This document shows, in pieces, positions 1,882-46,398 of a DNA stretch of 64,000 nt. The DNA lies in IMG/VR virus record IMGVR_UViG_3300027327_000001. One strand, 5' to 3'. The translations under genes and the position numbers were made by a program. This DNA comes from a virus. The notes under the pieces were generated by a model. That model searched no databases and had not been told where the DNA came from. It worked only from the letters and a program-made list of their open reading frames with translations. Position 1 is the stretch's first letter. Each line of letters begins with the position of its first letter.

Positions 1882-2696
1882 TGAATTTAGGGCCGGTGTT
1901 CCGTAGTTACCTATTTGTATCTAGCCCGTAGCGGCCTGTAACTCGACGCTGGGGCATGCCTGAACTTTTTGATACCAAACTACCTAAGTAGGCTTGTATG
2001 CCCTGGGAGCGATTCTAAGCGGCGCTGCATGCCCTCACCGATTTTCGGCACTTGTGGCTAAAAGCGAGAATCGCGCTTGGATTCGACGCTGACTCGACCA
2101 CTCGACTCGACGAACCGGCGGCCACGCGACGGCGATTGAGCGATGCCTTGCCAGCTGGTCGAGTGCTCTTGCCCTGGCAGTGCTTGGCAGTGCCTTGAAC
2201 GAGTGCAGGGCGGCCCGTCAAGCAGTGCTTGCCAGCCGTCGAGGGCTTGCCTGCATGGACTTGGCAGGCGCGCCTGGCGCTGCTCGCAATCGACCTGCGA
2301 TGCACTGGCTACCGGCGATCGCGCGCCTTGCCTAGCAGCGCCTGAAGCGGCCGCCGGCGGCCGCTACTCGACGGCGATTCGACGGCGAATCCGTCCACCG
2401 GCGGCCACTCGAATCGACTGCGAATCGACCTGATTCGGCCCGTCGAATAGGCGCGCTGATTCGGAGCGCGCGGCAGCTGTCGAGTGCGATTGCCAGTGCC
2501 GCGGCTAGCTACCGGCGGCGCCGGAATAGTCCCCAGCGGCCATAGGGCGGCCATAGAGCATCATTGCGCATGATTCCGGTGTATCCCACTGCATAGCGAC
2601 TAGGCGCGCTCTAGGGTAGCTCTGTAGGCTTGTCCGGCGAAAAGAAAAAAACTTTGTCGGAATCAAAAATATGTGCCGATTTTGTGCAATTAGTGC

Positions 2697-2725
2697 TTGC
2701 AGGGTAACCGCATATCCGATATACG
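2697..2725 (+). promoter_or_regulatory. candidate sigma70-like promoter of the early operon
   Basis: TTGCAG (2697-2702), 17 nt, then TATACG (2720-2725), about 35 nt upstream of the first early gene. Confidence 0.3.
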
Positions 2726-2758
2726 GGAGTCCACATTGACATATCGGAGACAAGCTAA

Positions 2759-3031
2759 ATGACCAAAACAGACAACCTGGACGCGAAATTGCAACTTGCT
2801 TTTCAGCGCCTGCAAGCCGCGCAAGACAACCTTGAAAACCTGCATGATGAGCTTGCCAAGTGCGGTCACGCGATAGACTCTTGGGCGATGCATGTAGGCG
2901 ATCAATCGAGTGTGCAAGCGGGCCGCGAAATATGGGCTAGCCTGACTCCTATGCAAGATGCCCTGCAAAAGCTTGCTATCGTCAACCGCAAATTTTCAAG
3001 CGCACTCGACACTTTCCAAGATCGCTCTTGA
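2759..3031 (+). CDS. hypothetical helical protein
   Basis: The ORF track gives 90 aa. A GGAGA SD lies 8 nt upstream of the ATG. This is the first gene of the early operon. Confidence 0.65.
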   Translation: MTKTDNLDAKLQLAFQRLQAAQDNLENLHDELAKCGHAIDSWAMHVGDQSSVQAGREIWASLTPMQDALQKLAIVNRKFSSALDTFQDRS

Positions 3032-3108
3032 GTCCCGCTTCACCGGCCGCCGTGCGCGGCCGGATTACCGGCACTCAACCGGACAACCAGATCAAGGAGA
3101 CAGAAAAA
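3032..3108 (+). promoter_or_regulatory. early intergenic cassette copy A (GC hairpin + ACCGG..ACCGG box + SD)
   Basis: cgcttcaCCGGCCGCcgtgcGCGGCCGGattACCGGcactcaACCGGAcaaccagatcAAGGAGA. Confidence 0.8.
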
Positions 3109-3468
3109 ATGACCAAATTACAGATTGAATTTTCAATGCTCAAATTCGCGGTGTGGGGACTGCCGCGCGTATCAATGGCGTCGATTGAAGGCGTCGATTG
3201 CGGCTATCTGTTTAACGAGCCGGGCGGCGATTGCGTATTGCCGTGCGAGAGCTTGAAGCGCATTGCAGGCGATCACAAATACCCGCCTGATTACTACAGC
3301 GCCAAGTGTTCGGCCCGTGCCGCCTGGAATACGTTGAGCGCTCGCGAGCAGTGCTATCGGCTGATGCGATCGGGAAGTTCGGCACTGGCAGACATTGCCC
3401 TGCAGTGGCTGGTCGATAACGGCCGCGATGATATTTTCGACGATATTTCACGCGAATTTGGCAACTAG
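3109..3468 (+). CDS. hypothetical protein
   Basis: ATG at 3109 (MTKLQIEF...) follows the cassette SD. The ORF-track frame 3028.. merely reads through the cassette. Confidence 0.65.
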   Translation: MTKLQIEFSMLKFAVWGLPRVSMASIEGVDCGYLFNEPGGDCVLPCESLKRIAGDHKYPPDYYSAKCSARAAWNTLSAREQCYRLMRSGSSALADIALQWLVDNGRDDIFDDISREFGN

Positions 3469-3548
3469 TGTTTCGCTTCACCGGCCGCCGCGCGCGGCCG
3501 GATTACCGGCACACTGAACCGGAAAACCAGTCAAGGAGACTAAACGAG
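3469..3548 (+). promoter_or_regulatory. early intergenic cassette copy B
   Basis: cgcttcaCCGGCCGCcgcgcGCGGCCGGattACCGGcacactgaACCGGAaaaccagtcAAGGAGA. Confidence 0.8.
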
Positions 3549-3980
3549 ATGACCAGAATAGCATATTGGACATATAACAGTGATACGCATTGCGGCCATT
3601 GCGCGCACAAGATTTTCAGCGCGCAATCTCTCTTTGAAGGAACAGCCGTAGACTCCGAAGATAATCCGGTTGTGCCCATGTTCGAACATGAAGATCATCA
3701 TCCCGACGGAGTCCATTGCGGGACCTGTTCAGAGGAATTGATGCCGTCGAGATTCCCCGGATTCATCGCTTTGAATGATCCCTACATGCAGGAGCTTATC
3801 AACGGATCCGATTGCCGCGAGTCCGCATACGCGGCCGCGCAAAAAGCAGTCAAAAAATTTCAGTATCTCGACGAGAAACTTGAAGAGCATCGGAATTACG
3901 ACTGGGACGAGAATCACGACGATTTAACCGCGACTCTCGACTGGATCGACGCATACGAGCACGCGGCGCAATCGCTCTAG
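3549..3980 (+). CDS. hypothetical Cys/His-rich (zinc-binding-like) acidic protein
   Basis: MTRIAYWTYNSDTHCGHCAHK...HCGTCSEE contains CxxC pairs. The ATG follows the cassette SD. Confidence 0.65.
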   Translation: MTRIAYWTYNSDTHCGHCAHKIFSAQSLFEGTAVDSEDNPVVPMFEHEDHHPDGVHCGTCSEELMPSRFPGFIALNDPYMQELINGSDCRESAYAAAQKAVKKFQYLDEKLEEHRNYDWDENHDDLTATLDWIDAYEHAAQSL

Positions 3981-4054
3981 TGTCCCGCTTTTCGCGCCTC
4001 AAGCGAGGCGCGATTACCGGCACATTCGACCGGACAACTGATAGGAGCTTGAAC
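3981..4054 (+). promoter_or_regulatory. early intergenic cassette copy C
   Basis: cgcttttCGCGCCTCaagcGAGGCGCGattACCGGcacattcgACCGGAcaactgatAGGAG. Confidence 0.8.
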
Positions 4055-4426
4055 ATGATAACCGCAATAAATGAAGCCAGTTTTGACTATCCGCAATCCT
4101 TGAGCCTGACTTTTTCATCGCCTCAGAAAATCGGCCGCGCTACCGTTATCCGCGTGTGTATCGACGTTGAAGGCGATCATTGCATAGTGGGCAATATCTA
4201 CCGCTTGCGCGATACTGGCGCGTTGCGCCTGACTCCCAGCGTCTCGGATATGGTTGGCAACGCGGCATATGGTCACACGGATTTTGCCCGCGCGCGCCGC
4301 GCGATAATCGAAAAGTGGGACGTGATGACGCTGGTTGAGCGCGCCGCGACACTCCTTGAGTGCGACGACTCCCGCGTCAAAAGAGCCGCTATGGACGTAT
4401 GCAGGGACTGCATGACCGACTCCTAA
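4055..4426 (+). CDS. hypothetical protein, paralog family 1
   Basis: MITAINEAS... The C-terminal region FARARRAIIEKWDVMTLVERAATLLEC resembles the products of 4518..4838 and 6212..6610. Confidence 0.65.
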   Translation: MITAINEASFDYPQSLSLTFSSPQKIGRATVIRVCIDVEGDHCIVGNIYRLRDTGALRLTPSVSDMVGNAAYGHTDFARARRAIIEKWDVMTLVERAATLLECDDSRVKRAAMDVCRDCMTDS

Positions 4427-4517
4427 AGGCGAAACCCGGCGCCGCCTGGCGCCGGTTCTAGCGCGCCTGGCGCCGCGCTACTGATGAGCCTAGCCAAGAG
4501 ATAAAGGAGACTCGACA

Positions 4518-4838
4518 ATGACCACATTCAGCCTGCACTTCACGCCTGTATTTTGCGATAGGCGCGACGGATCAAAAAGTTGCGACTTGATGATCGCGGG
4601 CCACAGCGTCGGCGCTCTAGTGCAGGAGCGCGGCGGCCATATCGACGCGACAATTGGAGTCGATGATCTGTTTGTAATGGATCGCTATGATAGCTTCACA
4701 GCGGCCCGCATGGCTATTCGTGAGCAGTGGCACGCGATGAGCATAGCCAATCGCGCGCGTGTGCTTCTCGACTGCAAGGTTTCCGCATTGCGAGAATTGG
4801 CAATCGACTACCACAGCGGCAATCTTTGCAGCTGCTAG
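4518..4838 (+). CDS. hypothetical protein, paralog family 1
   Basis: An AAGGAGA SD is present. FTAARMAIREQWHAMSIANRARVLLDC aligns with the 4055 and 6212 products. Confidence 0.65.
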   Translation: MTTFSLHFTPVFCDRRDGSKSCDLMIAGHSVGALVQERGGHIDATIGVDDLFVMDRYDSFTAARMAIREQWHAMSIANRARVLLDCKVSALRELAIDYHSGNLCSC

Positions 4839-4914
4839 AGCATCGCTTATCGGGCCGCCGCGTGCGGCCCGAAGACCGGCGCTTTAACCGGAAAACCAGA
4901 TAGGAGATAGGCAC
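4839..4914 (+). promoter_or_regulatory. early intergenic cassette copy D
   Basis: cgcttatCGGGCCGCcgcgtGCGGCCCGaagACCGGcgctttaACCGGAaaaccagatAGGAGA. Confidence 0.8.
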
Positions 4915-5262
4915 ATGAAAATCGAACCTGTAACCACTAAATCCGTAATGTCGCCTGGGGGTAGCATGACGCATGAGTCGGAATACCTATTCCCGGCTGA
5001 TGATTATGGACGGGCCGCGCTCAAAACTTTCGTCAATAGCGCCGCGCGAAAGCGAGCGCACTTTTACGCGCTGTCCGGTGTTCAGCCGCGCGTAATCGGT
5101 AGCGATGATCAAGTCTATCCCGCATTTGAAACTATCAACTTGGGCCGCCGTCAATGGACGGAATTAGCGACTAAGATTCTCACTTCGAAGTTTCGCCGGC
5201 CGCACGCGTTGCGCGTGCGCATGGTCGAGACTCAACTTTCTGTGCATGTATTCATGAACTAG
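4915..5262 (+). CDS. hypothetical protein
   Basis: ORF track, 115 aa, following the cassette SD. Confidence 0.6.
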   Translation: MKIEPVTTKSVMSPGGSMTHESEYLFPADDYGRAALKTFVNSAARKRAHFYALSGVQPRVIGSDDQVYPAFETINLGRRQWTELATKILTSKFRRPHALRVRMVETQLSVHVFMN

Positions 5263-5340
5263 TGCGTCGCTTATCGGGCCGCCGCGTGCGGCCCGAATAC
5301 CGGCACATTCGACCCGGAAAACCAGATAGGAGATTACCGA
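5263..5340 (+). promoter_or_regulatory. early intergenic cassette copy E
   Basis: cgcttatCGGGCCGCcgcgtGCGGCCCGaatACCGGcacattcgACCCGGAaaaccagatAGGAGA. The hairpin is identical to that of copy D. Confidence 0.8.
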
Positions 5341-5625
5341 ATGACCACACTGCAGCAAAAATTCGATAGGGTTTTTAGCCCTGGAGTGCCCACAAAATCG
5401 CGCGTCGAGGCGATGAACGATACCGCGATCGCGGCACTAGTGAATGAGCATGAAGGCGATGACGCGGCGCAACTGGCAGCTGCTGAAAGCGCGTGGGATA
5501 CGCTGGAGTCGAGACTTGACGATATGGACGAGTCGACTTTCGATTACGAGTTTGTCCTTGAAGACTATTACGAAGTTGAGGCGCTGATCAACGCTTTGGA
5601 TAGCCGCATTGCGCTTGACGGCTAG
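5341..5625 (+). CDS. hypothetical strongly acidic protein
   Basis: 94 aa and rich in D/E (…ESRLDDMDESTFDYEFVLEDYYEVE…). Confidence 0.6.
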   Translation: MTTLQQKFDRVFSPGVPTKSRVEAMNDTAIAALVNEHEGDDAAQLAAAESAWDTLESRLDDMDESTFDYEFVLEDYYEVEALINALDSRIALDG

Positions 5626-5700
5626 AGCATCGATCTTGGGGCGGCTGCGGCCGCCCATTGACCGGCGCTTTGACCGGATAACTCGATAGGAGAATCAAAA
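5626..5700 (+). promoter_or_regulatory. early intergenic cassette copy F
   Basis: GGGGCGGCtgcGGCCGCCCattgACCGGcgctttgACCGGAtaactcgatAGGAGA. Confidence 0.75.
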
Positions 5701-6117
5701 ATGAAACTGAAATTGTGCCCTGAAAATGGGAAGAAAATTGCGGCTGCGCTCGCAACTGTCAATGGCGGTTCGCACACGCACACATTCACTATGGGATCGC
5801 AAATTTCGCAGGAAATAGCTGAAGAGGCGGAGTCACGCCTCAGAAAATTCGGACTGTGTAACTCTAAGCGCCGCGGCGCGATAGTGATCGGCCAAAGCGG
5901 TTCGATACTGCCAAGCAGTTACGGATATCCAGCGCGCACAACAACAGTCACTTTGTATCGCGGCGTGCGCGACTGGTTCATTACGGATATTTCCGAGTCG
6001 TCGCTCTATCCCAAGACTCGACCTGTATTCCGAATCGGATTGCATGAATACCAGATTGAGAGCGCGCAAGAATCGATGCGCGCCGCGCTGGGGATCGCCG
6101 ATATTAGCGCGTCATAG
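5701..6117 (+). CDS. hypothetical protein, paralog family 2
   Basis: 138 aa. It shares its layout with 10095..10514 and 10511..10933: MK(L/I)..., ...RL..FGL..., then ...W(F/Y)(I/L)T(D/R)... Confidence 0.65.
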   Translation: MKLKLCPENGKKIAAALATVNGGSHTHTFTMGSQISQEIAEEAESRLRKFGLCNSKRRGAIVIGQSGSILPSSYGYPARTTTVTLYRGVRDWFITDISESSLYPKTRPVFRIGLHEYQIESAQESMRAALGIADISAS

Positions 6118-13976: not shown

Positions 13977-14124
13977 GGATGGCGCCAGCCGTTCTAAAAT
14001 TTTCAAGTAGGATGGCGCCAGCCGTTCTAAAAATTAGGATGGGCGCAGCCAGTCTAAAAATTTTTTAAGGATGGCGCCAGCCGTTCTAAAAATTCTGATA
14101 GGGATGGCGCCAGCCGTTCTAAAA
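13977..14124. repeat. array of five 23-bp direct repeats GGATGGCGCCAGCCGTTCTAAAA (iteron-like)
   Basis: Copies start at 13977, 14010, 14037 (degenerate), 14069 and 14102. The period is 27-33 bp, with AT-rich spacers of 4-10 bp. Each copy contains the palindrome TGGCGCCA. Confidence 0.9.
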
Positions 14125-14143
14125 TTTCGGGAACGCTGGTTTT

Positions 14144-14218
14144 TGGCTCCGGCGGCAGGTCTCGAACCTGCGACCGATTGATTAACAGTCAATTGCTCTA
14201 CCGCTGAGCTACGCCGGA
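14144..14218 (-). tRNA. tRNA-Asn (anticodon GUU), CCA encoded
   Basis: Hand fold: acceptor UCCGGCG/CGCCGGA, D arm GCUC-AGCGGUA-GAGC, anticodon arm AUUGA-CUGUUAA-UCAAU, variable CGGUC, T arm GCAGG-UUCGAGA-CCUGC, discriminator G, CCA. Confidence 0.9.
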
Positions 14219-14260
14219 ACGAAAGCGAGTCTAGCTTGGGATTTGTCTTGTGTAAATTAT

Positions 14261-14283
14261 GGATGGCGCCAGCCGTTCTAAAA
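14261..14283. repeat. sixth copy of the 23-bp repeat, on the other side of the tRNA
   Basis: A perfect GGATGGCGCCAGCCGTTCTAAAA that overlaps the TAG stop of the C5 MTase gene. Confidence 0.9.
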
Positions 14284-15690
14284 TTTTTGGGCCGGCGGCG
14301 CATCCTCATCTTTTTTTTGCGCAATAGGAATTCCATGCTTGCTCCAAACTTCATCCATGAGCTTGATTCGATGGCCGAGCCAGTTCATGCAATTTACGGC
14401 CATCGAGTTGCCGAGAATCGCGTAGCGCCTGGTCTTGGGCATTGGCTTGCCGCGGTGCTCGACAAGCGTGTAGTTGTCGGGGAATCCGAAAAGCCGCTCG
14501 ACTTCAAGAGGCGTGAGCTTGCGGACAACGTAACCGTCCGTGATGGCGATATAGCCTTGGCCGGGAGCTCCGCCGGGCTTGTTGATTGACGGCGTTATCT
14601 CGCCGTCGCCACCGGCAAGCCGCACGTGTCCCTGCTGGTTCTGCGCGAACGCCACGGCCTGCGGCGGATTGCCCGTGTCGATGGTTCCACTAACGCCCTC
14701 CCACGCGCCGAAGCTCGATTGCCTTGCCTGGAATGCGACTGCCTGAGGATGCCCGGTTTGACACGTGTAAGCGGCTTCGTCTTCGCGCCAGCCATTGCCG
14801 TTCGGAGAGGATTTGGGATTGGTTCTATCCGCCTTTTCATGGATGGCGACGACCTTCTGCACGATTAGGTGACCTTCCCGCCCTCTCTTGTCCGCCTTCA
14901 TATGTCCCACAATTGCGGGGGAAACGGGTTGGCATGCAGTTTCTTGGCACTCGTCTTCTGCCGGACCGCCGCCGCCTTTCGCCGACTGCGCCGTGACCGC
15001 TTCGCAGACTCCAGGCTCTGCGACTCCGTCGCCCGCTTCAAGCCCGCTATTTTCCTCAGAACCGTATCCAAGAAACCCGGCAGTTTCCTGCCTTCTTTTT
15101 CTGCGCGGTGGATGATGCCTCTGCATGCTCTCCCGCTCAAATAATACTCCCGCAGGTGCTCGCCAGTCACTTCCAAGACATCCAACAACGAAGACACGCC
15201 GTCGCTGCTGGGGGACGGCACGAGGGTGTGATTGAACTCGGATATATTGAGAGTCGAAGATTCTGTAGCTGAGACTATACCCGCATTTAACCATCGCCCC
15301 GAGGATGGTTCCAAACGCCCGTCCTCCGTCCATTGACAGGAGTCCGGGGACATTTTCCCACAAAAACCATCTTGGTTGTAGTCGAGAAAGAATTTCCACA
15401 TAGGTGAGTGATAGGTTGCCACGCGGGTCATCCAGGCCACCGCGTCCTCCTGCGATGGAGTAGGACTGGCAGGGGGTTCCTCCAACAAGAACGTCAATTG
15501 ATTTTCGGTCATCCGACAGCCTTTCTAAAAGAGTAGTCATGTCGCCGTAGTTCGGGACGTCGGGATAGTAGTGATTTAGCAGCGAGCAGCAATGCGGATC
15601 CACTTCGGCAAAGAATTGCGGCTCCCAGCCAAGCGGTTCCCATGCGACGGTAGCTGCCTCTATCCCAGAGCAGACGGAGCCGTATTTCAT
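14278..15690 (-). CDS. dcm: DNA (cytosine-5) methyltransferase
   Basis: Motif I is GSVCSGIEA, motif IV GGTPCQSYS, motif VI WENVPGLLS and motif VIII PQQRRRVFVVG. Motif IX is RKLTPLEVERLFGFPDNYT and motif X RYAILGNSMAVN. Confidence 0.9.
   Translation of the reverse strand: MKYGSVCSGIEAATVAWEPLGWEPQFFAEVDPHCCSLLNHYYPDVPNYGDMTTLLERLSDDRKSIDVLVGGTPCQSYSIAGGRGGLDDPRGNLSLTYVEILSRLQPRWFLWENVPGLLSMDGGRAFGTILGAMVKCGYSLSYRIFDSQYIRVQSHPRAVPQQRRRVFVVGCLGSDWRAPAGVLFERESMQRHHPPRRKRRQETAGFLGYGSEENSGLEAGDGVAEPGVCEAVTAQSAKGGGGPAEDECQETACQPVSPAIVGHMKADKRGREGHLIVQKVVAIHEKADRTNPKSSPNGNGWREDEAAYTCQTGHPQAVAFQARQSSFGAWEGVSGTIDTGNPPQAVAFAQNQQGHVRLAGGDGEITPSINKPGGAPGQGYIAITDGYVVRKLTPLEVERLFGFPDNYTLVEHRGKPMPKTRRYAILGNSMAVNCMNWLGHRIKLMDEVWSKHGIPIAQKKDEDAPPAQKF
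14898..15512 (-). CDS. nested alternative-frame ORF (204 codons) inside the C5 MTase gene; coding status uncertain
   Basis: This same-strand ORF overlaps MTase motifs IV-VIII. Its translation is protein-like (…CQWTEDGRLEPSSGRWLNAG…TLNISEF…SSLLDVLEVTGEHLREYYLSGRACRGIIHRAEKEGRKLP…). See findings. Confidence 0.3.
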   Translation of the reverse strand: MTENQLTFLLEEPPASPTPSQEDAVAWMTRVATYHSPMWKFFLDYNQDGFCGKMSPDSCQWTEDGRLEPSSGRWLNAGIVSATESSTLNISEFNHTLVPSPSSDGVSSLLDVLEVTGEHLREYYLSGRACRGIIHRAEKEGRKLPGFLDTVLRKIAGLKRATESQSLESAKRSRRSRRKAAAVRQKTSAKKLHANPFPPQLWDI

Positions 15691-15962
15691 TTAAATTGCT
15701 TTTCTTTCGCGCTGGCGGCGATGGCACTTCGGATTTTTCTCTTGATTTCGTTCAGAGTCGAGCCATTTTGACGCAATGCATGGGAAATATGATCGTCTTC
15801 GTAGTAAAAGCGATCTGGCCCGCTAATCCATCTTTCGGACCTGTCTTTGGGCTTACTGTTTTTCATGACAATTCCGATATGAACATTCAAGCCCGCATGT
15901 TTAAGATAAATCTGATGAACCGTGGCCGTAAAAAAATGGAATCTTATGCATGATTTTGGCAT
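15687..15962 (-). CDS. small protein, tandem paralog 5 of 5 (most diverged)
   Basis: 91 aa. It shares …H/P.G(I/Y)… and the C-terminal L.EIKRKIRSAI with its neighbours. An ATGA overlap joins it to the MTase start. Confidence 0.6.
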   Translation of the reverse strand: MPKSCIRFHFFTATVHQIYLKHAGLNVHIGIVMKNSKPKDRSERWISGPDRFYYEDDHISHALRQNGSTLNEIKRKIRSAIAASAKEKQFK

Positions 15963-16228
15963 TACTGAGCTCCCTTCTCCTTCATGCTCGCGCCGACCTG
16001 CATTCTGATCTCGAATTTGAGATCATTCAAATTCCAATGCTGGTCGAAGAGGACAGAAGGATCGAAATATGGCGACAAATGTTCCGTTGGACGGCTTTTC
16101 CAACCGGTGAATGTCTTCTCGATTAATCCTATTGGAACGTCCAAGCCGCGCTCGCGCATGTAAATACGCCAATTGCCGGAAGCCGCTTCGCGCTTGAATT
16201 CTATTGTTCTTTTCGGATGAATCGACAT
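15962..16228 (-). CDS. small protein, tandem paralog 4 of 5
   Basis: 88 aa: …VPIGLIEKTFTGWKSRP…LNDLKFEIRMQV…. Confidence 0.65.
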   Translation of the reverse strand: MSIHPKRTIEFKREAASGNWRIYMRERGLDVPIGLIEKTFTGWKSRPTEHLSPYFDPSVLFDQHWNLNDLKFEIRMQVGASMKEKGAQ

Positions 16229-16229
16229 G

Positions 16230-16496
16230 CTACTTTCCCGTCTCCTTCAGGGTTTCTAGGATCGCCGCCTTAACCTTGCGCTTCAATTCCGGCAGGGTTT
16301 TGGCCTCCTGGAAAATAACGTCAGCGTCGAAAAACTCCGATTTCGTTATTATAGAAGTGCTGCTCCATCCGCCTCCCCATTGCTTAATGCAATAGCCGAC
16401 AGGCATGAGCATGCCGCCCTCGTCTACGAGAATAGATTCAACGCCTAATTCGCCCATAGTCTCGAAGGTGACTCTTTTCTTGGGATTCTTGGACAT
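16230..16496 (-). CDS. small protein, tandem paralog 3 of 5
   Basis: 88 aa: …MPVGYCIKQWGGGWSS…LPELKRKVKAAILE…. Confidence 0.65.
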   Translation of the reverse strand: MSKNPKKRVTFETMGELGVESILVDEGGMLMPVGYCIKQWGGGWSSTSIITKSEFFDADVIFQEAKTLPELKRKVKAAILETLKETGK

Positions 16497-16497
16497 G

Positions 16498-16758
16498 CTA
16501 GTTTCCTTTCTGTTTCATGCTGTCCGCGATCGTGGCTCTGACTTTGCGCTTGAGTCCGTTCAGTGTGCGGTCGTAAAGGAAAAGATCTCGATAGTCGTAA
16601 AGCTCTGACGTTTCTGTCGGCCTGCTGCTCCATCCGCCTCCCCAATCTCGACTGCAGAAGCCGACCGGAATCATCATGTCGCCATCACGCAGTAAAATAT
16701 CGTGAACACTTAACTGTTGGAATTCGAATACGACTTTCAATTTGCGGCGCACGGCCAT
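16498..16758 (-). CDS. small protein, tandem paralog 2 of 5
   Basis: 86 aa: …IPVGFCSRDWGGGWSS…LNGLKRKVRATIAD…. Confidence 0.65.
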   Translation of the reverse strand: MAVRRKLKVVFEFQQLSVHDILLRDGDMMIPVGFCSRDWGGGWSSRPTETSELYDYRDLFLYDRTLNGLKRKVRATIADSMKQKGN

Positions 16759-16759
16759 G

Positions 16760-17026
16760 CTAAGCTCCTCTGTTCGTCATCAAGCCTTGCGCGATCGCTT
16801 CTCGGACCTTGCGCTTGAGTCCGTTCAGAGTCCGGTCATGACAGTAAAGCACCTTATAGTTTTGAAACTTTACATTTTTTATCGGCTCGCTTCGCCATCC
16901 TCTCCAATCACGACAGCAATAACCTACCGGCCAACTCATTTCACCGTCGTCGATGAAAATTTCGTAAGTGCGGGACACTACTGCGTCCCGCTTGAATACA
17001 ACTTTCGTTTTGCGGCTTGCGGCCAT
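16760..17026 (-). CDS. small protein, tandem paralog 1 of 5
   Basis: 88 aa: …WPVGYCCRDWRGWRSE…LNGLKRKVREAIAQ…. Confidence 0.65.
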   Translation of the reverse strand: MAASRKTKVVFKRDAVVSRTYEIFIDDGEMSWPVGYCCRDWRGWRSEPIKNVKFQNYKVLYCHDRTLNGLKRKVREAIAQGLMTNRGA

Positions 17027-17944
17027 CTACTTTCCTTTCGGGAATTGACGGACATTAAGAAAGTCCGGAATCGGTTCTAGTCGCGCCATCTGCTTCATGA
17101 AGAATGCCACGCGGTTTCTAGCGCATTCCTGCATCAACTTGAGTGCCCATGCATTATCCATGTGCCTGGCCTTCGGTCCGGACTCGCCGCCGACAATCAC
17201 TTGATCCAGACGATTCAGCATTCCTCTAGTTCCGGATCCAATCCACCCGGTGAGAGCGTTTATTGGAGGGCCGCGCCTCGGATCAATATCTTCAAGAGAC
17301 ATTGCCCCAATGAGCGGTTCGGCGCTCAGGAAGCGTTTTGCCGCTTTCGCTCCGAGCAAGTGCGGAATTCGAATATTCGCGGTCTTCTGATCCTCGGCTG
17401 AAACGCCTAGCCAGACGTTTTTAAGCGGCCAATGGCGCGCGTAGTCGATGATGCCGCGCTTCTCGGCAATGTCGGACATCGCTTGGAAAACAGCGTTCTC
17501 GAACCACAATGCCGTTGTTCCCTGCGCGGTTGCTCCGAACAACTTCTCAAGTCGCATATGGCGCTTGGTGAGCACTTTGAAAGTGTGCTGCGGCGCCAAT
17601 CCCATGACGGCGAATATCTGATGCAACCAGCTTTGAGGAACGTTTTCGAGAAATATATCAGTCATCGAGCAAACAAACACGCCCCGCGGCGCCGTCCAAT
17701 GCAAAGGATAGTTGAGCACGCGTTGATCGAGGTAAAGCTCGACCTTGCTCGAGTCCTGATTGGCGAAACGGACGGGATTTTGAAACCTTGTCTGTAGGCG
17801 TTCGGCATAGCAATTCTTGCAACCGTCGCTGACATGCACGCAGAAGTGGCCGCGCCCTCCGGTTTCGAGATTGTAAGCTCGTATCGGATTCCATGATTCG
17901 GCGCGGCCGCCTGGGTTTGAAACCCATTCAATTTTTGTTGGCAT
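17027..17944 (-). CDS. DUF5131 (phage Gp37/Gp68) family protein
   Basis: MPTKIEWVSNPGGRAESWNPIRAYN....GHFCVHVSDGCKNCYAERL is the characteristic N-terminus with the Cys cluster of this family. 305 aa. Confidence 0.75.
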   Translation of the reverse strand: MPTKIEWVSNPGGRAESWNPIRAYNLETGGRGHFCVHVSDGCKNCYAERLQTRFQNPVRFANQDSSKVELYLDQRVLNYPLHWTAPRGVFVCSMTDIFLENVPQSWLHQIFAVMGLAPQHTFKVLTKRHMRLEKLFGATAQGTTALWFENAVFQAMSDIAEKRGIIDYARHWPLKNVWLGVSAEDQKTANIRIPHLLGAKAAKRFLSAEPLIGAMSLEDIDPRRGPPINALTGWIGSGTRGMLNRLDQVIVGGESGPKARHMDNAWALKLMQECARNRVAFFMKQMARLEPIPDFLNVRQFPKGK

Positions 17945-17953
17945 TGGTCTTCC

Positions 17954-18370
17954 TTAGAAAGGTATCGTGTCGCCGGTGTCTTCCTGACCAGGTTCGCCTT
18001 CAAGCTCCGAGGCGGTTTTGCCGCTGCATGGCGGTATCTCCAACTCGACGCTTTCCGGAGTTTCCGTCTCATACGGCAGCCCCATCGCATTCAAACTCGT
18101 GCGATGCTCGTGATAGTAGAGGATCGGCTCGTTGTTTGCAGCCGCGTAGGCGCGGGCGACCTTCTCCTCAATCGGAGTCAGGCAGTAAACCGAGGACGGC
18201 GGAACGAAGTGCGTAGCGGCAACCGCCTGCTCGTCGCCTACGTAAACGTCCACGCGAAGGAATTTCGCGCCGCCGAGCTCGTATTCGCTCACGAGTCCGC
18301 AAATCCTTCTGTGCCCCATCATTTCGAGCAGGGCGAATGTGAAAAACTGGCTTGTGAATTCGGTGGTCAT
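17954..18370 (-). CDS. hypothetical protein
   Basis: ORF track, 138 aa. The stop and start are coupled to the neighbouring genes. Confidence 0.55.
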   Translation of the reverse strand: MTTEFTSQFFTFALLEMMGHRRICGLVSEYELGGAKFLRVDVYVGDEQAVAATHFVPPSSVYCLTPIEEKVARAYAAANNEPILYYHEHRTSLNAMGLPYETETPESVELEIPPCSGKTASELEGEPGQEDTGDTIPF

Positions 18371-18801
18371 TTGAGTCTCCTCATGAAGTCAATTAGTTCG
18401 CTGGTGCTGAAAATATTCCAGCCGACGCTACCATATTGCTCCCAGTATCCGTCTGAAATATTGACGAAAACCGGAATATCGCAAGCTACGGCGGTTGCGA
18501 CTTCCGCCCTGCATCCCTTGGAATCATTCCACGGCTTTTGAAGCACGAGCAGGCAATTGACGCCGCGGCAAATCAGGGGCAGTTCGACATAAAAATAGTG
18601 GCGCGGGCTAAGAGGTAACCGGCATGTCGGGTCGATTCTGCGCGACATTTCCTCTATCTCGGCCGTTACTTTGATGGGATTGATCACTTGAAAGCCGTGG
18701 CCTGTGAACAGTTCGTCGAATTCCGTGAACAGCGGTTCGTTGTAGTCAGGAACGCCGCGCATCGGCGCGGAAATGTATATCATTTTTCTGTTGCCGGTCA
18801 T
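18367..18801 (-). CDS. DUF4406 / nucleoside 2-deoxyribosyltransferase-like protein, paralog 3
   Basis: MIYISAPMRGVPDYNEPLFTEFDELFTGHGFQVINP matches the DUF4406 N-terminus (IYI.GPM.G..DYN...F......L...G..V.NP). The ATG at 18801 overlaps the upstream TGA (ATGA). Confidence 0.6.
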   Translation of the reverse strand: MTGNRKMIYISAPMRGVPDYNEPLFTEFDELFTGHGFQVINPIKVTAEIEEMSRRIDPTCRLPLSPRHYFYVELPLICRGVNCLLVLQKPWNDSKGCRAEVATAVACDIPVFVNISDGYWEQYGSVGWNIFSTSELIDFMRRLK

Positions 18802-19283
18802 TTTGATAGGTTCCATACGTAGAGGCAAGCCATGTCTCTTGACATGAATTGACTGTTTTTTGTGTCTGGCTCATACATGAGCCAAGTGACATAATTTTTT
18901 TTGCTAAGACCGGTCATTCTGACCCATTCTTGTCTCGGAATATGGTGATTAATGAAGACCGGTATACCGCACGACAATGCCAGATCGACGACCCATCGTC
19001 CTTCAGGATCCTCGTGCCAATCGGGACTCTCTACGAATAGCGCGTTCGCGTGGAGAGCGATTGCTGAAGCTTCCTCAGCCAGATAACACCTTGTCGGCAA
19101 CGGAATTTTGGTTTCCGGGTCTTCATCAAGAGCCAAAGCGTTTACTCGATCTCTCACTTGGAAAGGATCGTCGACGGTTACTCCGTTATCTTCAAGGAAT
19201 CTTTTCCTGTATAATTCCATCACTTCTTGAAGCATGGCGTAATGGAAACTAAGCGGCGTCCAGTAATATATTTTTATTGTCAT
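18798..19283 (-). CDS. DUF4406-like paralog 2
   Basis: MTIKIYYWTP…DPETKIPLPTRCYLAEE…WHEDPEGRWVVDLALSCGIPVFINH aligns with both neighbours. Confidence 0.6.
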   Translation of the reverse strand: MTIKIYYWTPLSFHYAMLQEVMELYRKRFLEDNGVTVDDPFQVRDRVNALALDEDPETKIPLPTRCYLAEEASAIALHANALFVESPDWHEDPEGRWVVDLALSCGIPVFINHHIPRQEWVRMTGLSKKNYVTWLMYEPDTKNSQFMSRDMACLYVWNLSK

Positions 19284-19362
19284 TTTCTTAGATCCCATAC
19301 CATGCGGCAAGCTTCCGTGGTTGTCATGAATTGACGTGGAAGATACTCCTTTCTGTTGCTGG

Positions 19363-19848
19363 TCATTGCGCTATGTCCGATAAGTAGAAGCACGCATTCT
19401 TTGTTGACATGAATTCAATCTTATTAGTGCCAGGTTCGTGCAATTCCCACGTCAGATAATTCTCGCTGTAAATACCCGTCATGGATGCAATAACTTTTCT
19501 TGAGCGACAGTGATTAACAAAGACAGGTTTGCCGCAACATAGGGCTAGATCGACGAGGCATCGTCCTTCGGGATACTCGATCCATTCGGGTTCCTCTACG
19601 AATAGTGCGATCGCATGGAGAGCGACTGCCGAAGTTTCCTCGGCCAAATAATATTTTGCAGGCAACGGAATTTCGGTTTCGGGATCCGCCTCAAGAGCCA
19701 ACTCATTTACTTTGTCTCTAACTTGGAACCGATCATTGATTGTAACGCCGTATTCTATGCGAAAGCTTTTCCGCGCTAATTTTAGCATGTCTTCAATAAT
19801 GACACGATTAAGGCGAGGCGGGAACCAGTAGTAGATTGGAATGGTCAT
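19363..19848 (-). CDS. DUF4406-like paralog 1
   Basis: MTIPIYYWFP…DPETEIPLPAKYYLAEE…WIEYPEGRCLVDLALCCGKPVFVNH. Confidence 0.6.
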   Translation of the reverse strand: MTIPIYYWFPPRLNRVIIEDMLKLARKSFRIEYGVTINDRFQVRDKVNELALEADPETEIPLPAKYYLAEETSAVALHAIALFVEEPEWIEYPEGRCLVDLALCCGKPVFVNHCRSRKVIASMTGIYSENYLTWELHEPGTNKIEFMSTKNACFYLSDIAQ

Positions 19849-29626: not shown

Positions 29627-29717
29627 GACAACCGAATTGCGTTTTAGAGACCTAAACGCGACAGTCGTTCAGCTTGGCCACAAAATTGACGACGTTACAT
29701 CGGATGACGACGAATGA
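29544..29717 (+). CDS. hypothetical small coiled-coil protein (57 aa, below the ORF-track cutoff)
   Basis: Hand translation: MTKRERLRLKESMQEICRQLDVMRVEAKTTELRFRDLNATVVQLGHKIDDVTSDDDE. Its TGA overlaps the ATG of the MTase (ATGA). Confidence 0.35.
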   Translation: MTKRERLRLKESMQEICRQLDVMRVEAKTTELRFRDLNATVVQLGHKIDDVTSDDDE

Positions 29718-32209
29718 CGACGCGAATACTCGTCGGAGACTGCCGAGACGCTCTGAAGATTCTTCCGGATCAGTCCGTCCACTGCGTCGTAACCAGCCCG
29801 CCGTATTGGGGCCTGCGCTCCTACGGAAAGGACCGCGGCATGATCGGACTGGAAGAAAGTTTTTCCGATCACCTAGCCAATTTGATTGAAGCCTTCAGAG
29901 AAGTCCGCCGCGTTCTTCGAGACGATGGGACGCTCTGGCTCAACTATGGCGACGCTTACGCCGGCAGCGGCAAAGGTGGTGGCGGTTGGTCTCCGAAGCA
30001 AGCGAGCAATCAAGGCTCTTTCGACGACGCGATCAAGAACAACCAGGGCTATCGCAAGGACGGATTCGGCCCACAGCAGCTTATGATGATGCCGGCGAGA
30101 ATAGCGCTCGCCATGCAGGAAGACGGTTGGCAGCTTAGGTCCGAGATCATTTGGTGCCTTTCCGGTGGAACGTGGCTATACGCCAGAACGCAGAAAGGCG
30201 ACGGCATACACATGCTGCGTGATTTGGCACGTCTGGATCCGTCAACTGTCAAGCTTTGGAACGGCCAGAAGTGGACGCAAGTCCTAGGATGGTCGCAATC
30301 CGAGACGCGAGACGACCCGCTTGAATTGGTTTTAAGATCGGGCGAACGCATAGGATGCACGAAGACGCACAAGTGGCCGACGCAGAGAGGTCTTTTGGAA
30401 GCATCGGAACTGCGTGTCGGAGACTGTCTACAGTCGGCCACGCTACCAGAGAAGCGAGGGGCGGCTAGACCGGAATGGATAACGGATTTGGCGCTTTGGT
30501 TCGCCGGATTGTATCTCGCCGAAGGCAACATTTACGAAAAAACGATTTCGATTGCCGGCCACGTCAACAATGTAAGCCGATGGAATAGAATCAAGGTTCT
30601 GTGCGATCACTACGGCGCGTTGCCAAAACTCTACATCGACGGCAACCGTCAATCTATTGTCATCAAAGGCGCGGCTGCTCTGCTGGCGGTTCTAAGCGTG
30701 ACAATCTCCGGCTCCGTAGCCAATGACAAGCATCTTCATTACGGTATCTGGAACTGGGACAACGCTTCGATACAGAAGATTATGCGCGGATACCTTGAAG
30801 GTGACGGGCATTGGGACGGAGGGAGATACCGTCTTGGATTCACAAGGAACTACGAACTTGAAAGAGATTTTCGCTGCGCAGCGGCAAGACTCAATGCGAC
30901 TCTGACGCTGAAGCCTAGCGTAGCTAACATCGGAGAAAAGGAATATCCTTCTTTCAGAGGTGAGTGGCGATGGACAAGAACAGGACACCGGAACGAAAAA
31001 GATAGGAATGAAATTGTTGAGATAAGAAAATCTCGCGCGAGGAAATTCTACGATGTGGGCGTAGAGGACTCTCCGAACCTGTTCTGCCTAGCGAGCGGCG
31101 TTCTCACTCATAATTCCAAGGTCGCTCCAATGCCTGAAAGCGTAACGAACAGGCCGACATCGGCGCACGAGAAAGTATTCCTGTTCTCGAAAAGCAACTC
31201 GACAAAATTCTGGACGCACCCGAAATTGGGGGGAACCAGGCAGCGACCGGAGCATGATCATTATTGGGTTAACAAGCTCACCGATGAAATATCGCACGTG
31301 GAACCGGAAGGCTGGAAGGATATTAGAGACGACCGCGGGCACAAAATTTGGTCGCGGCGCAACGGATGGGTTGGACACAACTATTTCTACGATCACATCG
31401 CCGTCCGGACGGAAATGAAAGAATCATCGCGGCAAAGGATGGATCAGGCCACTTTCGACGAGCAGACCGGGGGGCCGAAGGATCCAAAGTCCGGCAACAG
31501 GTCGCATCGACTTGTTCTGGAAAACCTGAAAAAGAGAACGCCGAAGGACATTGACGGGCGTTCTGCGAGGATGGGTCGTGAAGTAGGATGGCGGAAAAAT
31601 GACAAGCAACGCGGGCACTCGCGCCGGCACGACGGCTTTAATGATCGATGGGATTCAATGACAAAAAGCGAGCAGCAGTCGAACGGCGCCAACATGCGTA
31701 ACGTAATGTCGGTCACGCCGGCCGGCTTCTCCGGAGCGCACTTCGCCACCTTCCCGCCAGCGCTCGTCATACCGTTCGTATCGGCAGGCACCAGCGAAGC
31801 CGGTTGCTGCTCGGAGTGCGGCGCGCCTCTTGCTCGAGTCGCTGAAAGCGCTCTCGTTCCCACGGCCAAGGCTGCCCGAACCAACGTCGTAGACGGCAGG
31901 GACGACGCAGCGGACGACAATTGCGGAGCATCCAATCGCCAGAAGGACGGTTGGATTCCAGGATGGTCCAAGCAATTCAGGACCAAAGGCTGGGCGCCGA
32001 CCTGCGACTGCGAAGATGCGCGCGTGGTTCCGTGCGTCGTGATGGATCCTTTCGGCGGCGCGGGAACGCTCGGACTGGTGGCCGACAAGCTGCAGCGCGA
32101 TGCGATTCTCATAGAAATAAATGAAGGCTACGCGGCAATGGCTCGCGACCGCATCCTCGGCGACGCGCCGCTCATGGCCGACGTCGATTTGATAGACGCA
32201 AAGGAGTAG
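29714..32209 (+). CDS. N4/N6 DNA methyltransferase (PF01555-like, SPPY first) interrupted by an intein
   Basis: Motif IV is VVTSPPYWGLRSY. The conserved EIIW|…|SKVAPMPESV…HEKVFLFSK box is split by the intein. HFATFPPAL follows, and motif I is VMDPFGGAGTLG. Confidence 0.85.
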   Translation: MTTRILVGDCRDALKILPDQSVHCVVTSPPYWGLRSYGKDRGMIGLEESFSDHLANLIEAFREVRRVLRDDGTLWLNYGDAYAGSGKGGGGWSPKQASNQGSFDDAIKNNQGYRKDGFGPQQLMMMPARIALAMQEDGWQLRSEIIWCLSGGTWLYARTQKGDGIHMLRDLARLDPSTVKLWNGQKWTQVLGWSQSETRDDPLELVLRSGERIGCTKTHKWPTQRGLLEASELRVGDCLQSATLPEKRGAARPEWITDLALWFAGLYLAEGNIYEKTISIAGHVNNVSRWNRIKVLCDHYGALPKLYIDGNRQSIVIKGAAALLAVLSVTISGSVANDKHLHYGIWNWDNASIQKIMRGYLEGDGHWDGGRYRLGFTRNYELERDFRCAAARLNATLTLKPSVANIGEKEYPSFRGEWRWTRTGHRNEKDRNEIVEIRKSRARKFYDVGVEDSPNLFCLASGVLTHNSKVAPMPESVTNRPTSAHEKVFLFSKSNSTKFWTHPKLGGTRQRPEHDHYWVNKLTDEISHVEPEGWKDIRDDRGHKIWSRRNGWVGHNYFYDHIAVRTEMKESSRQRMDQATFDEQTGGPKDPKSGNRSHRLVLENLKKRTPKDIDGRSARMGREVGWRKNDKQRGHSRRHDGFNDRWDSMTKSEQQSNGANMRNVMSVTPAGFSGAHFATFPPALVIPFVSAGTSEAGCCSECGAPLARVAESALVPTAKAARTNVVDGRDDAADDNCGASNRQKDGWIPGWSKQFRTKGWAPTCDCEDARVVPCVVMDPFGGAGTLGLVADKLQRDAILIEINEGYAAMARDRILGDAPLMADVDLIDAKE
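30155..31114 (+). mobile_element. intein (320 aa) with a LAGLIDADG homing-endonuclease domain
   Basis: It begins with Cys (CLSGGTWLY, block A). Block B is GCTKTHKW. The LAGLIDADG motifs are FAGLYLAEGN and MRGYLEGDGHW. It ends with FYDVGVEDSPNLFCLASGVLTHN followed by the +1 Ser. Confidence 0.85.
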
Positions 32210-45322: not shown

Positions 45323-46390
45323 TTAACTATTCTCCAGCCACATGACGGCGCTGTCACGATAGCCCGCTTCGATATTGTGAACGCGATGCTTTACCCACGC
45401 GGGGAAGACTATGGCCTGCCCCGGCTTCATCGGTATCTTGCCGAAGCCGTCTATCTCGAACTCGCCGCCCTCGTCGGCGTTGCGGATTAAAGCCGAGATT
45501 GAAAGCGACCGGCGGTCGTCGGTTCCCTCGGCGCGGTCATTGTGCATGTTGAAGAATGATCCCGGCCCGTATGTCGTGTATTGCACGCCGTTGATTCCGG
45601 ATGCGTCTATTCCCCAATCGTTCGCTTCGCGGGCCGTCATTGCTAGCCTGTCGGATAGCCAGCGCCATTCGGGAAGGTGGCCGACGAATGCGATCTCGCT
45701 CTTTCTTACGCTCGTATCCAGTCCTTCGCGCGTCATCGTCCCTGCTTCGAGCGTGAGGGCCATTGAGTCTTTAAGGCACTTCTCCAACTCGAAGTCGCTA
45801 AGGCAGTCCACGACCTTGTAGGATTGCGCTACGGGCGCTTTCGGAGGCTTGGGAAAGAAAGGCTTGTAGTCCAGCTTGAATTCCGGGTCGCCTTCGAATC
45901 CAGGCTGCTCCGAGTAGTGCAGGAATAGCTGGTAGGCTTCCCTGCCTTTGAACGGCTGCCTGCGATGCCACTGCTTGCGGCCGTTCATCAGAACCGCCCT
46001 ATCCCCTAGATCCTCGAAGGAATGCCAGTTCCCGTCATCGTCGTGAACTTCGATGGTCCATGAATGATCCCGCCAGATATTTATCGATAGCGTCCAGTCG
46101 AGTCCGGGGCGGTCGTAGTGCATCCTCAATTCGCCGCCCTTGTAGACGAGCCTGGCGAACGAATTTACCGGCCACAATTTCTTGCCAACGGCTTCCGACA
46201 CGTGCGGCAGGAATCTATGAAGCAGCTGCTCGCCGACCTTCGGCTTGTATACGCCAAGCGTATTCGGCGCGAATTGCTCATCGACGACGTGATGGCAACC
46301 CATTCTGCTAGGCCACTTCAGGCACATCTTGATCGACGATCTGTCGGCGCCTACGATGTGCTTCTCGCGCGTTAGTTCGATGTATTGCAT
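45323..46390 (-). CDS. protein with two 2OG-Fe(II) oxygenase-like (double-stranded beta-helix) domains
   Basis: The N-terminal domain has LRMHYDRPG…WHRRQP…FLHY. The C-terminal domain has FFNMHNDRAEG…VKHRVHNIE…RDSAVMW. Each carries HxD…H. The preferred ATG at 46390 follows AGGAAG. Confidence 0.65.
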   Translation of the reverse strand: MQYIELTREKHIVGADRSSIKMCLKWPSRMGCHHVVDEQFAPNTLGVYKPKVGEQLLHRFLPHVSEAVGKKLWPVNSFARLVYKGGELRMHYDRPGLDWTLSINIWRDHSWTIEVHDDDGNWHSFEDLGDRAVLMNGRKQWHRRQPFKGREAYQLFLHYSEQPGFEGDPEFKLDYKPFFPKPPKAPVAQSYKVVDCLSDFELEKCLKDSMALTLEAGTMTREGLDTSVRKSEIAFVGHLPEWRWLSDRLAMTAREANDWGIDASGINGVQYTTYGPGSFFNMHNDRAEGTDDRRSLSISALIRNADEGGEFEIDGFGKIPMKPGQAIVFPAWVKHRVHNIEAGYRDSAVMWLENS

Positions 46391-46398
46391 TTCGCTTC

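Follow-up and report, generated by a model that had tools for sequence, protein, structure and literature searches.

Five tandem genes

The subject of this analysis is a run of five short genes in the window, by which we mean the whole stretch of 64,000 nucleotides (nt) of viral DNA in IMG/VR record IMGVR_UViG_3300027327_000001. The genes lie on the minus strand, between a gene of the DUF5131 family and a gene for a C5 cytosine DNA methyltransferase (Dcm). An initial annotation had described them as consecutive, translationally coupled paralogs of about 88 amino acids (aa), and both the listing of open reading frames (ORFs) and a reading of the minus strand confirmed the five ORFs at the following coordinates.

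16760-17026, minus strand: copy 1; 88 aa, isoelectric point (pI) 9.9, loop W-RGW; its ATG abuts the TAG stop codon of DUF5131
16498-16758, minus strand: copy 2; 86 aa, pI 9.5, WGGGW loop; nearest to the family consensus
16230-16496, minus strand: copy 3; 88 aa, pI 7.8, WGGGW loop
15962-16228, minus strand: copy 4; 88 aa, pI 9.5, loop F-TGW
15687-15962, minus strand: copy 5; 91 aa, pI 10.1, GC content 0.42; its stop codon overlaps the start of Dcm

The junctions, as read from the sequence, are very tight. DUF5131 and copy 1 join as TAG and then ATG with no spacer, three junctions in the array are TAG-c-ATG with a spacer of 1 nt each, copy 4 and copy 5 join as TAATG, and copy 5 and Dcm join as ATGA. 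The spacing of 0-1 nt or overlap, and the tight coupling in one operon, are as first described. Shine-Dalgarno-like sequences (GGAG/AGGA) occur within about 25 nt 5' of the start codons of copies 1-5, and no such sequence is evident upstream of the Dcm start. The five ORFs are real, co-translated genes. A read-through polyprotein or recoding of TAG was ruled out, since the downstream ATGs stand in the +1 frame (TAG-c-ATG) and the sole tRNA is tRNA-Asn(GTT).

The five copies can be aligned end to end, with 24-47% identity to copy 1 and 20-48% amino-acid identity among them. Their pairwise local alignment scores are 50-190, compared with about 23 +/- 4 for shuffled sequences (z = 6.2-38), and for every pair 0 of 1000 shuffles matched the observed score. 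At the DNA level, the array contains direct repeats spaced 265 nt, and a 22-nt stretch across the WGGGWSS codons is identical in copies 2 and 3, which are otherwise 62% identical overall. The scores and the 265-nt periodicity uphold the claim of paralogy. The array is a serial tandem duplication of a unit of about 265-268 nt, gene plus junction, of a lineage-specific phage gene.

The motif that was said to be shared by the copies holds for copies 1-3 and fails for the other two. PVG(Y/F)C..(D/Q)W is present in copies 1-3 only, where copy 1 has W-RGW; copy 4 has F-TGW, and copy 5 has an insertion of 7-8 residues in the beta3-beta4 hairpin loop, the site of W(G)GGW in other copies. What is invariant over eight sequences, the five copies and three homologs from outside the window, is M1, F11, I21, G33, W43, S45 and K70 (copy-2 numbering); if only the five copies of the window are compared, K6 and L66 are invariant as well. 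Four of the five copies are basic, with pI of about 9.4-10.1, and they have a basic N-terminal tail.

Predicted fold

Copies 2 and 5 were modelled by AlphaFold2 with the alignment of eight sequences. The model of copy 2 has a predicted local distance difference test score (pLDDT) of 86.4 and a predicted template modelling score (pTM) of 0.75; that of copy 5, the most diverged copy, has 81.6 and 0.69 with the same topology. In copy-2 numbering the predicted elements are beta strands 7-15, 18-25, 28-37 and 43-47, a short helix, strand 61-63 and helix 66-85. Each copy is thus predicted to be a four- to five-stranded antiparallel beta-meander packed on a long amphipathic C-terminal helix. The two models agree on this fold with confidence.

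Is this fold known? For copies 2 and 5, the best Foldseek matches in the PDB have E values (E) of 0.48 and 1.1, with template modelling scores (TM) of at most 0.43. Against BFVD, Foldseek returned uncharacterised phage proteins of about 85-90 aa (TM 0.52-0.71, probability about 1.0, E 0.009-0.1). The WGR domain, Sso7d/chromo-like, SH2 and helix-grip folds were considered as candidates and rejected, with no Pfam match and a Foldseek likeness that is only partial (TM 0.35-0.43).

Conservation is highest in strand beta4 (GW-S-(R)-P-T), in the N-terminal, basic half of the helix (TLN-LKRK(V/I)R) and also in the hydrophobic core. It is lowest in the hairpin loops, beta3-beta4 included, and in the 48-60 loop. 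No feature is less conserved than the W(G)GGW loop, which is gone from copies 4 and 5, from their counterparts v4 and v5 in a strain variant, and from the single-copy relative P0010 (both described below). The conserved K-R-K-x-R patch on the helix probably faces outward, and the invariant Trp and Ser are located in beta4, adjacent to it. The copies are hydrophilic and mostly basic (pI 7.8-10.1), and the alignment contains no conserved Cys or His. Each copy is a small, mostly basic domain without catalytic signature, and this profile suggests a binding module rather than an enzyme; no enzyme-family match to the copies was found in Pfam, PHROGs or NCBIfam.

Distribution of the family

The initial annotation did not recognise the family, and the searches agree with it, since there was no match in Pfam, PHROGs, NCBIfam or PADLOC, among PDB sequences or among PDB folds. 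For copies 1-4, profile hidden Markov models (HMMs) of Pfam-A, PHROGs v4, NCBIfam 20 and PADLOC-DB 2 gave 0 matches, and for copy 5 the same libraries gave only DUF3983 at E 0.66, which is not significant. A profile search of PDB sequences reached a best E of 1.1. The family was not found by tblastn in 50,697 phage genomes, pattern scans of metagenome and genome collections gave no relatives, and a word-indexed search of 5.8 billion proteins returned the five window proteins only.

When 1.84 billion cluster representatives were searched exhaustively with HMMER, four further proteins came up, P0008-P0011. P0008 (83 aa, E 2e-11) is a real relative, being the fifth copy of a strain-variant array. 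P0010 (90 aa, E 4e-4) is also a real relative and is a single-copy gene. The other two are spurious: P0009 (420 aa, seven repeats of about 57 aa) is a repeat-amplified match to the helix only, with no supporting domain, and P0011 (625 aa) is plainly a tetratricopeptide-repeat protein, again with a repeat-amplified match to the helix only. A partial tblastn match in L055 is not significant (family HMM E 0.22). The family is therefore an orphan, found among the 1.84 billion representatives in this phage, its strain variant and P0010 only. Eight contigs that carry the exact proteins (from JGI, ENA and Logan; up to about 75.3 kb) are identical to the window or differ by at most one single-nucleotide polymorphism. 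With the AAA_25 replication protein as query, no related phage was found in IMG/VR.

The locus of P0010 is a phage-like contig of 5.7 kb. Upstream of P0010 are PTH2, Acb1 (Pfam E 3e-11), which acts against the cyclic-oligonucleotide-based antiphage signalling system (CBASS), and a small MORN-like gene; downstream are two more MORN-like genes. Acb1 is two genes away from P0010. Within positions 2035-5741 of the contig, P0010 is flanked by small paralogs (about 94-150 aa) that contain the MORN-like repeat HREDGPA, and a further paralog pair upstream has the common ending '...NDEEFKELLKQHMVKEAFEE'. The region looks like an accessory or anti-defence island.

Strain variants and history of the array

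The variant array is carried by two short contigs, L009 and L010, as copy 2' (partial), 3', 4' and 5', followed by Dcm. The order of copies 2-5 is the same as in the window, and the variant contig ends before copy 1. How far have the two strains diverged? The flank from DUF4406 to the N-terminus of DUF5131 is 88.2% identical in nucleotides and the Dcm flank 81.7%. Copy 3 is 94.7% identical in nucleotides and 94% in amino acids, with a synonymous divergence (dS) of 0.18 and a ratio of nonsynonymous to synonymous divergence (dN/dS) of 0.14. For copy 4 the values are 65.5% and 57%, dS 1.4 and dN/dS 0.25; for copy 5 they are about 50% and 38%, with dS saturated. The dN/dS values of copies 3 and 4 indicate that the copies are under purifying selection. 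With copy 3 closer than the background and copies 4 and 5 far more diverged, the array reads as a recombination mosaic. In addition, variant copies 4 and 5 share a near-identical stretch, GIIERQ..GWKSRPT, which suggests gene conversion between them. Over about its first 55 nt (positions 1-55), L009 repeats its own copy-3 WGGGW region as reverse complement, an assembly hairpin artefact seeded by the 22-nt stretch common to copies 2 and 3.

A close relative, L116 (ENA ERZ23493692 scaffold_1204), has at the site of the array a fusion ORF of 85 aa. It consists of residues 1-72 of DUF5131 and, in frame, the last 13 residues of variant copy 5 (SAVAEAIEESGAL), and is followed by Dcm with ATGA coupling. 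About 2 kb are lacking (window positions about 17729 to about 15700), including DUF5131 from about residue 73 to its end and all five copies. The sequence at the junction, ctacctc/agtgcgg, shares no k-mer with the DUF5131 sequence of the window, so that L116 is probably a genuine deletion variant and not an assembly chimera. If so, the array is dispensable, at least in some settings.

All the marks of an accessory gene expanded in tandem within one phage lineage were found here: paralogy, a 265-nt period, a mosaic variant array and the L116 deletion. The anatomy and the evolutionary history of the array are secure. It arose long ago by serial tandem expansion, and its genes are under selection, translated together, diversifying and dispensable.

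Genomic neighbourhood

The neighbours named in the initial annotation are as follows, and they were confirmed.

17027-17944, minus strand: DUF5131 gene, upstream neighbour of the array (Pfam E 8.5e-64)
14278-15690, minus strand: Dcm, a C5 cytosine DNA methyltransferase, downstream of the array and translationally coupled to copy 5 (E 2.8e-45)
14144-14218: tRNA-Asn, anticodon GTT

A further neighbour had been called Vsr-like. The gene is there, but the assignment comes down to a sub-threshold match to DUF559 (E 0.007). The window belongs to a tailed phage, with a tape-measure protein of 3065 aa and tail proteins. The array sits in a long minus-strand block from about 27.8 kb to 13.4 kb, which has a promoter-like site at 27842-27815, and no convincing terminator was found within the array. 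The order of genes in the block is SbcC-like, helicase, primase, AAA_25, three DUF4406-like tandem paralogs, orf138, DUF5131, the five copies, Dcm, tRNA-Asn and the weak DUF559/Vsr-like gene. To call this a DNA-modification operon, as was first done, is an overstatement; the array is part of a long operon for replication and nucleotide metabolism. The GC content is 0.54-0.59 in DUF5131, Dcm and the replication genes versus 0.42 in copy 5.

DUF5131 is a subgroup of the radical S-adenosylmethionine (radical-SAM) superfamily according to SFLD. The protein in the window has a C-x6-C-x2-C motif and matches the candidate-defence components PDC-M41B (E 5e-55) and PDC-M30B (E 1e-52) of PADLOC; its match to 'radical SAM mobile pair protein A' of NCBIfam is far below the cutoff. 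Nothing functional on DUF5131 was found in the literature.

Several other features of the window should be noted. A second set of tandem paralogs lies in the same operon, 1.3 kb upstream of the array (18367-19848, minus strand). It contains two proteins of 161-170 aa, 53% identical to each other and with a low GC content of 0.45, similar to copy 5, and a DUF4406 protein (nucleoside 2-deoxyribosyltransferase-like) that is 26% identical to the pair. At 13977-14283 (plus strand) there are five perfect copies and one degenerate copy of a 23-nt motif, GGATGGCGCCAGCCGTTCTAAAA. The motif is confined to the gap of about 300 bp around tRNA-Asn, between Dcm and the DUF559-like gene; no copy occurs elsewhere in the 64 kb, and 0 copies are expected by chance. 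It could represent iterons or operators, stacked terminator hairpins, or a recombination site. A second DNA methyltransferase, of 831 aa, is encoded on the opposite strand at 29714-32209 (plus strand). At 45323-46408 (minus strand), inside the tail-gene block, there is a protein of 361 aa with PHROG matches 'ferrochelatase' and '2OG-Fe(II) oxygenase'.

DUF5131 and Dcm loci in other phages

Do relatives of the array accompany DUF5131 or Dcm elsewhere? We collected from IMG/VR 43 loci with a DUF5131 homolog and 58 loci with a homolog of this Dcm and scanned them with the family HMM. The family occurs in 0/43 and 0/58 of them, respectively, and these loci show virtually no synteny with the window. 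Only three loci have DUF5131 and Dcm next to each other on one strand. In one of them (L064) the slot between the two genes holds unrelated ORFs of 82 aa and 133 aa, and in the other two (L038 and L039) a DnaB-type helicase and an ORF of 186 aa. The genes downstream of DUF5131 encode 53 to 486 aa, and across the 43 loci they include no tandem paralogs within a locus and no recurrent or universal partner. The copies also gave no match to TIGR04474 or TIGR04471 of NCBIfam (TcmP / radical SAM mobile pair).

Recurrent co-occurrence, as expected of a partner or subunit, was thus found neither for DUF5131 nor for this Dcm subfamily. The initial annotation had proposed that the copies are adaptor or specificity subunits of these enzymes. 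The survey, the unrelated slot fillers and the different setting of P0010, beside Acb1 and PTH2, all speak against the proposal, and the array probably does not represent built-in subunits of DUF5131 or Dcm. The same counts remove comparative support both from an adaptor role and from the possibility that the copies are substrates of DUF5131 resembling precursors of ribosomally synthesised and post-translationally modified peptides (RiPPs).

An open reading frame embedded in Dcm

The comparison of Dcm loci gave an observation of its own. Within Dcm there is a +1-frame ORF of 204 aa (14898-15512, minus strand), and a homologous open ORF is found at the same place of Dcm in 53/60 loci, with 33-48% identity for alignments longer than 100 aa. 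Its carriers, with about 150-200 codons, are L038, L064, L114, L115, L118 and most of L056-L113, and the ORF remains open across a shared insertion of about 100 codons in L114. Measured against permutations of the synonymous codons, the +1 frame stays open for longer than chance would give (Fisher combined p 3e-12), versus p = 0.83 for the +2 control. In residues 60-169 of Dcm, the Dcm frame is better conserved than the +1 frame. In residues about 170-219, downstream of motif VIII, the +1 frame is better conserved in 4/5 blocks of 10 residues: the mean pairwise identity per block is 0.51, 0.56, 0.69, 0.47 and 0.36 for the +1 frame and 0.43, 0.64, 0.30, 0.22 and 0.20 for the Dcm frame. The embedded ORF is also present in cultured phages, namely Omega-type mycobacteriophages, Roseobacter CRP-821, Caulobacter DMCA and Pseudanabaena Pan4, and is unannotated in the GenBank records of the cultured phages examined. 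It matches no family in Pfam, and no description of it was found in the literature searched. A genuine overlapping gene, or else a frameshift isoform, is the probable explanation. In L116, an apparent 1-nt frameshift at a T-run of Dcm joins the Dcm N-terminus to the embedded ORF (protein P0014). The 'split Dcm' of L002 was considered as a lesion and rejected; with L002 and the window 100% identical, the split reflects a choice of the gene caller. As the ORF belongs to a widespread subfamily of phage Dcm, cultured mycobacteriophages included, it may be of wider interest.

Possible roles of the array

What, then, might five such proteins do? The reading that we prefer, tentatively and with a probability of roughly 0.35, is that they form a panel of non-enzymatic binders with a shared scaffold, a basic surface and paralog-specific loops, serving as accessory factors of counter-defence or host interaction. 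The copies would be stoichiometric binders and not enzymes. The scaffold and the basic surface would be common to all, and the loops would make the difference between copies. Such a panel would be dispensable and diversifying, and it would be expressed with the replication and DNA-modification genes. We favour this reading because of the accessory behaviour of the array, the lack of linkage to DUF5131 and Dcm in the loci surveyed, the small size of the proteins and the neighbourhood of P0010. The 'panel of inhibitors' of the initial annotation appears compatible with the deletion in L116, with the mosaic, divergent copies 4 and 5, and with the place of P0010 two genes from an anti-CBASS gene.

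Several points weigh against the binder panel. There is no sequence or structural likeness to characterised anti-defence proteins in Pfam, PHROGs or PDB folds, and the guilt by association comes from one contig of 5.7 kb, that of P0010. Between strains, dN/dS is below 1 and positive selection was not detected; the saturated dS of copies 4 and 5 points to old alleles or recombination and does not record a measurable arms race. A nucleic-acid ligand common to the copies would suit the conserved basic helix and the basic pI just as well. The perfect coupling from DUF5131 to Dcm and the co-deletion of DUF5131 in L116 are also expected of a functional module. Finally, the presence of the second, DUF4406-like tandem set in the operon means that duplication may be a regional habit.

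It is also conceivable, though improbable in our estimate, that the panel shields a self-methylating phage, the paralog-specific loops of each copy blocking a different host sensor and one basic scaffold surface being common to all. The targets would be type IV or 5-methylcytosine-dependent restriction enzymes or other defence effectors, and the coupling to Dcm would let modification and protection arise together. If this were true, the copies would found a structural family not yet known among anti-defence proteins, and the 'paralog array' would be a new strategy in phages.

Among the alternatives, the one that survives best, and is still unlikely, is that the copies are nucleic-acid-binding accessory or 'specificity' proteins that work with DUF5131, Dcm or replication proteins, the paralogs steering them to different sites or substrates. 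It would account for the high pI of four copies, the basic N-terminal tail, the K-R-K-x-R patch on the helix and the Trp and Ser of beta4, as well as for the stop-start coupling from DUF5131 through the five copies to Dcm and for the joint loss of DUF5131 and the array in L116. However, such a role is hard to reconcile with a family that is missing from all 43 DUF5131 and all 58 Dcm loci, with the unrelated genes that fill the DUF5131-Dcm slot in other phages, and with P0010, a single-copy gene with neither enzyme nearby on its contig; nor did Pfam or Foldseek against the PDB relate the copies to a known domain or fold that binds DNA or RNA.

A hetero-oligomer of five subunits is improbable. 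Here the coupling would fix the stoichiometry, and the subunits would form a ring or stack through a free face of the beta-sheet, with the single-copy relative as a homo-oligomer. The strict coupling, with its spacers of 0-1 nt or overlaps, the kept order of copies 2-5 in the variant, and a predicted two-layer fold that would leave one face of the sheet bare are what one would expect of such an assembly. Yet amino-acid identities between strains of 38% for copy 5, 57% for copy 4 and 94% for copy 3 are awkward for co-adapted interfaces, and the entire set is dispensable in L116.

Could the copies be functionally redundant or decaying duplicates from a duplication-prone region, with no paralog-specific role? 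We regard this as a slim chance. The tandem set 1.3 kb upstream with its 53% identity, the loss of the array in a natural variant and the extremely narrow taxonomic range are in its favour, but each of the five copies is intact and has a start codon and a Shine-Dalgarno sequence, their dN/dS is 0.14-0.25, and copies as old as 20-48% amino-acid identity implies keep the same confident predicted fold, copy 5 included.

Least probable is that they are protein substrates or RiPP-like precursors of the radical-SAM-like DUF5131 with the WGGGW loop as modification site: the classic precursor-peptide layout of five small paralogs directly 3' of a gene of the SFLD radical-SAM superfamily, the Trp-rich loop of copies 1-3 and the co-deletion in L116 invite it, but the models (pLDDT 82-86) are compact and globular and not leader-plus-core peptides, conservation runs across beta4 and the C-terminal helix and is at its lowest in the W(G)GGW loop, which copies 4, 5, v4, v5 and P0010 lack, and the 43 other DUF5131 loci are without tandem small paralogs or a recurrent small downstream partner.

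If the copies do bind host targets of defence or takeover, as in the binder panel, the set of anti-defence proteins would gain a new fold family, and the array would be a rare phage case of diversification by tandem paralog expansion and not by gene swapping. General importance is limited, since the family is confined to essentially one uncultured phage lineage. As a well-documented orphan family with a confident predicted fold that is unmatched, five diverged natural versions of a single scaffold and a deletion mutant found in nature, it is a handy start for experiments.

Comparison with known systems

How does the array compare with systems already known? The closest fold likeness is to phage proteins of about 85-90 aa in BFVD, such as A0A345MWH8, A0A6J5KQE4, A0A4Y5TV68 of Vibrio phage VAP7 and A0A143FPZ7 of Mycobacterium phage Shipwreck, which share with the copies both size and the architecture of beta-meander and C-terminal helix. 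They differ in sequence, with only 8-16% identity, the E values are only 0.009-0.1, and homology is not established.

Small phage anti-defence proteins, such as the anti-CRISPRs (Acr), Arn and IPI* of T4, Acb and Tad, have 60-140 aa and are non-enzymatic or binding. They are lineage-restricted and dispensable, and they are encoded in accessory or mosaic parts of phage genomes, usually as unrelated genes side by side and not as five paralogs. The copies resemble them in being small, lineage-restricted and dispensable, and P0010 is two genes from Acb1. They differ in having no sequence match, no structural match in the PDB and five paralogs together; the copies are basic, unlike the acidic DNA mimics. 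In particular, the copies have no Pfam or PHROG match to Acr, Ocr/ArdA, Arn, IPI*, Acb1/2 or Tad1/2, no chain of these families is among the top 50 PDB fold matches listed for either model, and no tandem arrays of small anti-defence paralogs were found in the literature.

In T4-like phages, the internal-protein (ip) loci are polymorphic and encode clustered proteins that are small, basic and fast-diverging, have a short conserved N-terminus and vary between relatives; the genes are late, and the products are targeted to the capsid by a cleavable N-terminal sequence. Our array is like them in its clustered small, basic and rapidly diverging proteins. It is unlike them in being placed in a replication operon and in having a C-terminal helix that is more conserved than the N-terminus, and no protease site was identified. 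RiPP clusters also have tandem small paralogs directly 3' of a radical-SAM gene and co-transcribed with it, but the array differs from them in its predicted folded domains, in a candidate 'core' loop that is unconserved and in the absence of such neighbours from the 43 DUF5131 loci. The family and its predicted fold are new to the libraries searched, and the process behind the array is of a familiar kind, in which a small accessory phage gene expands in tandem within one lineage.

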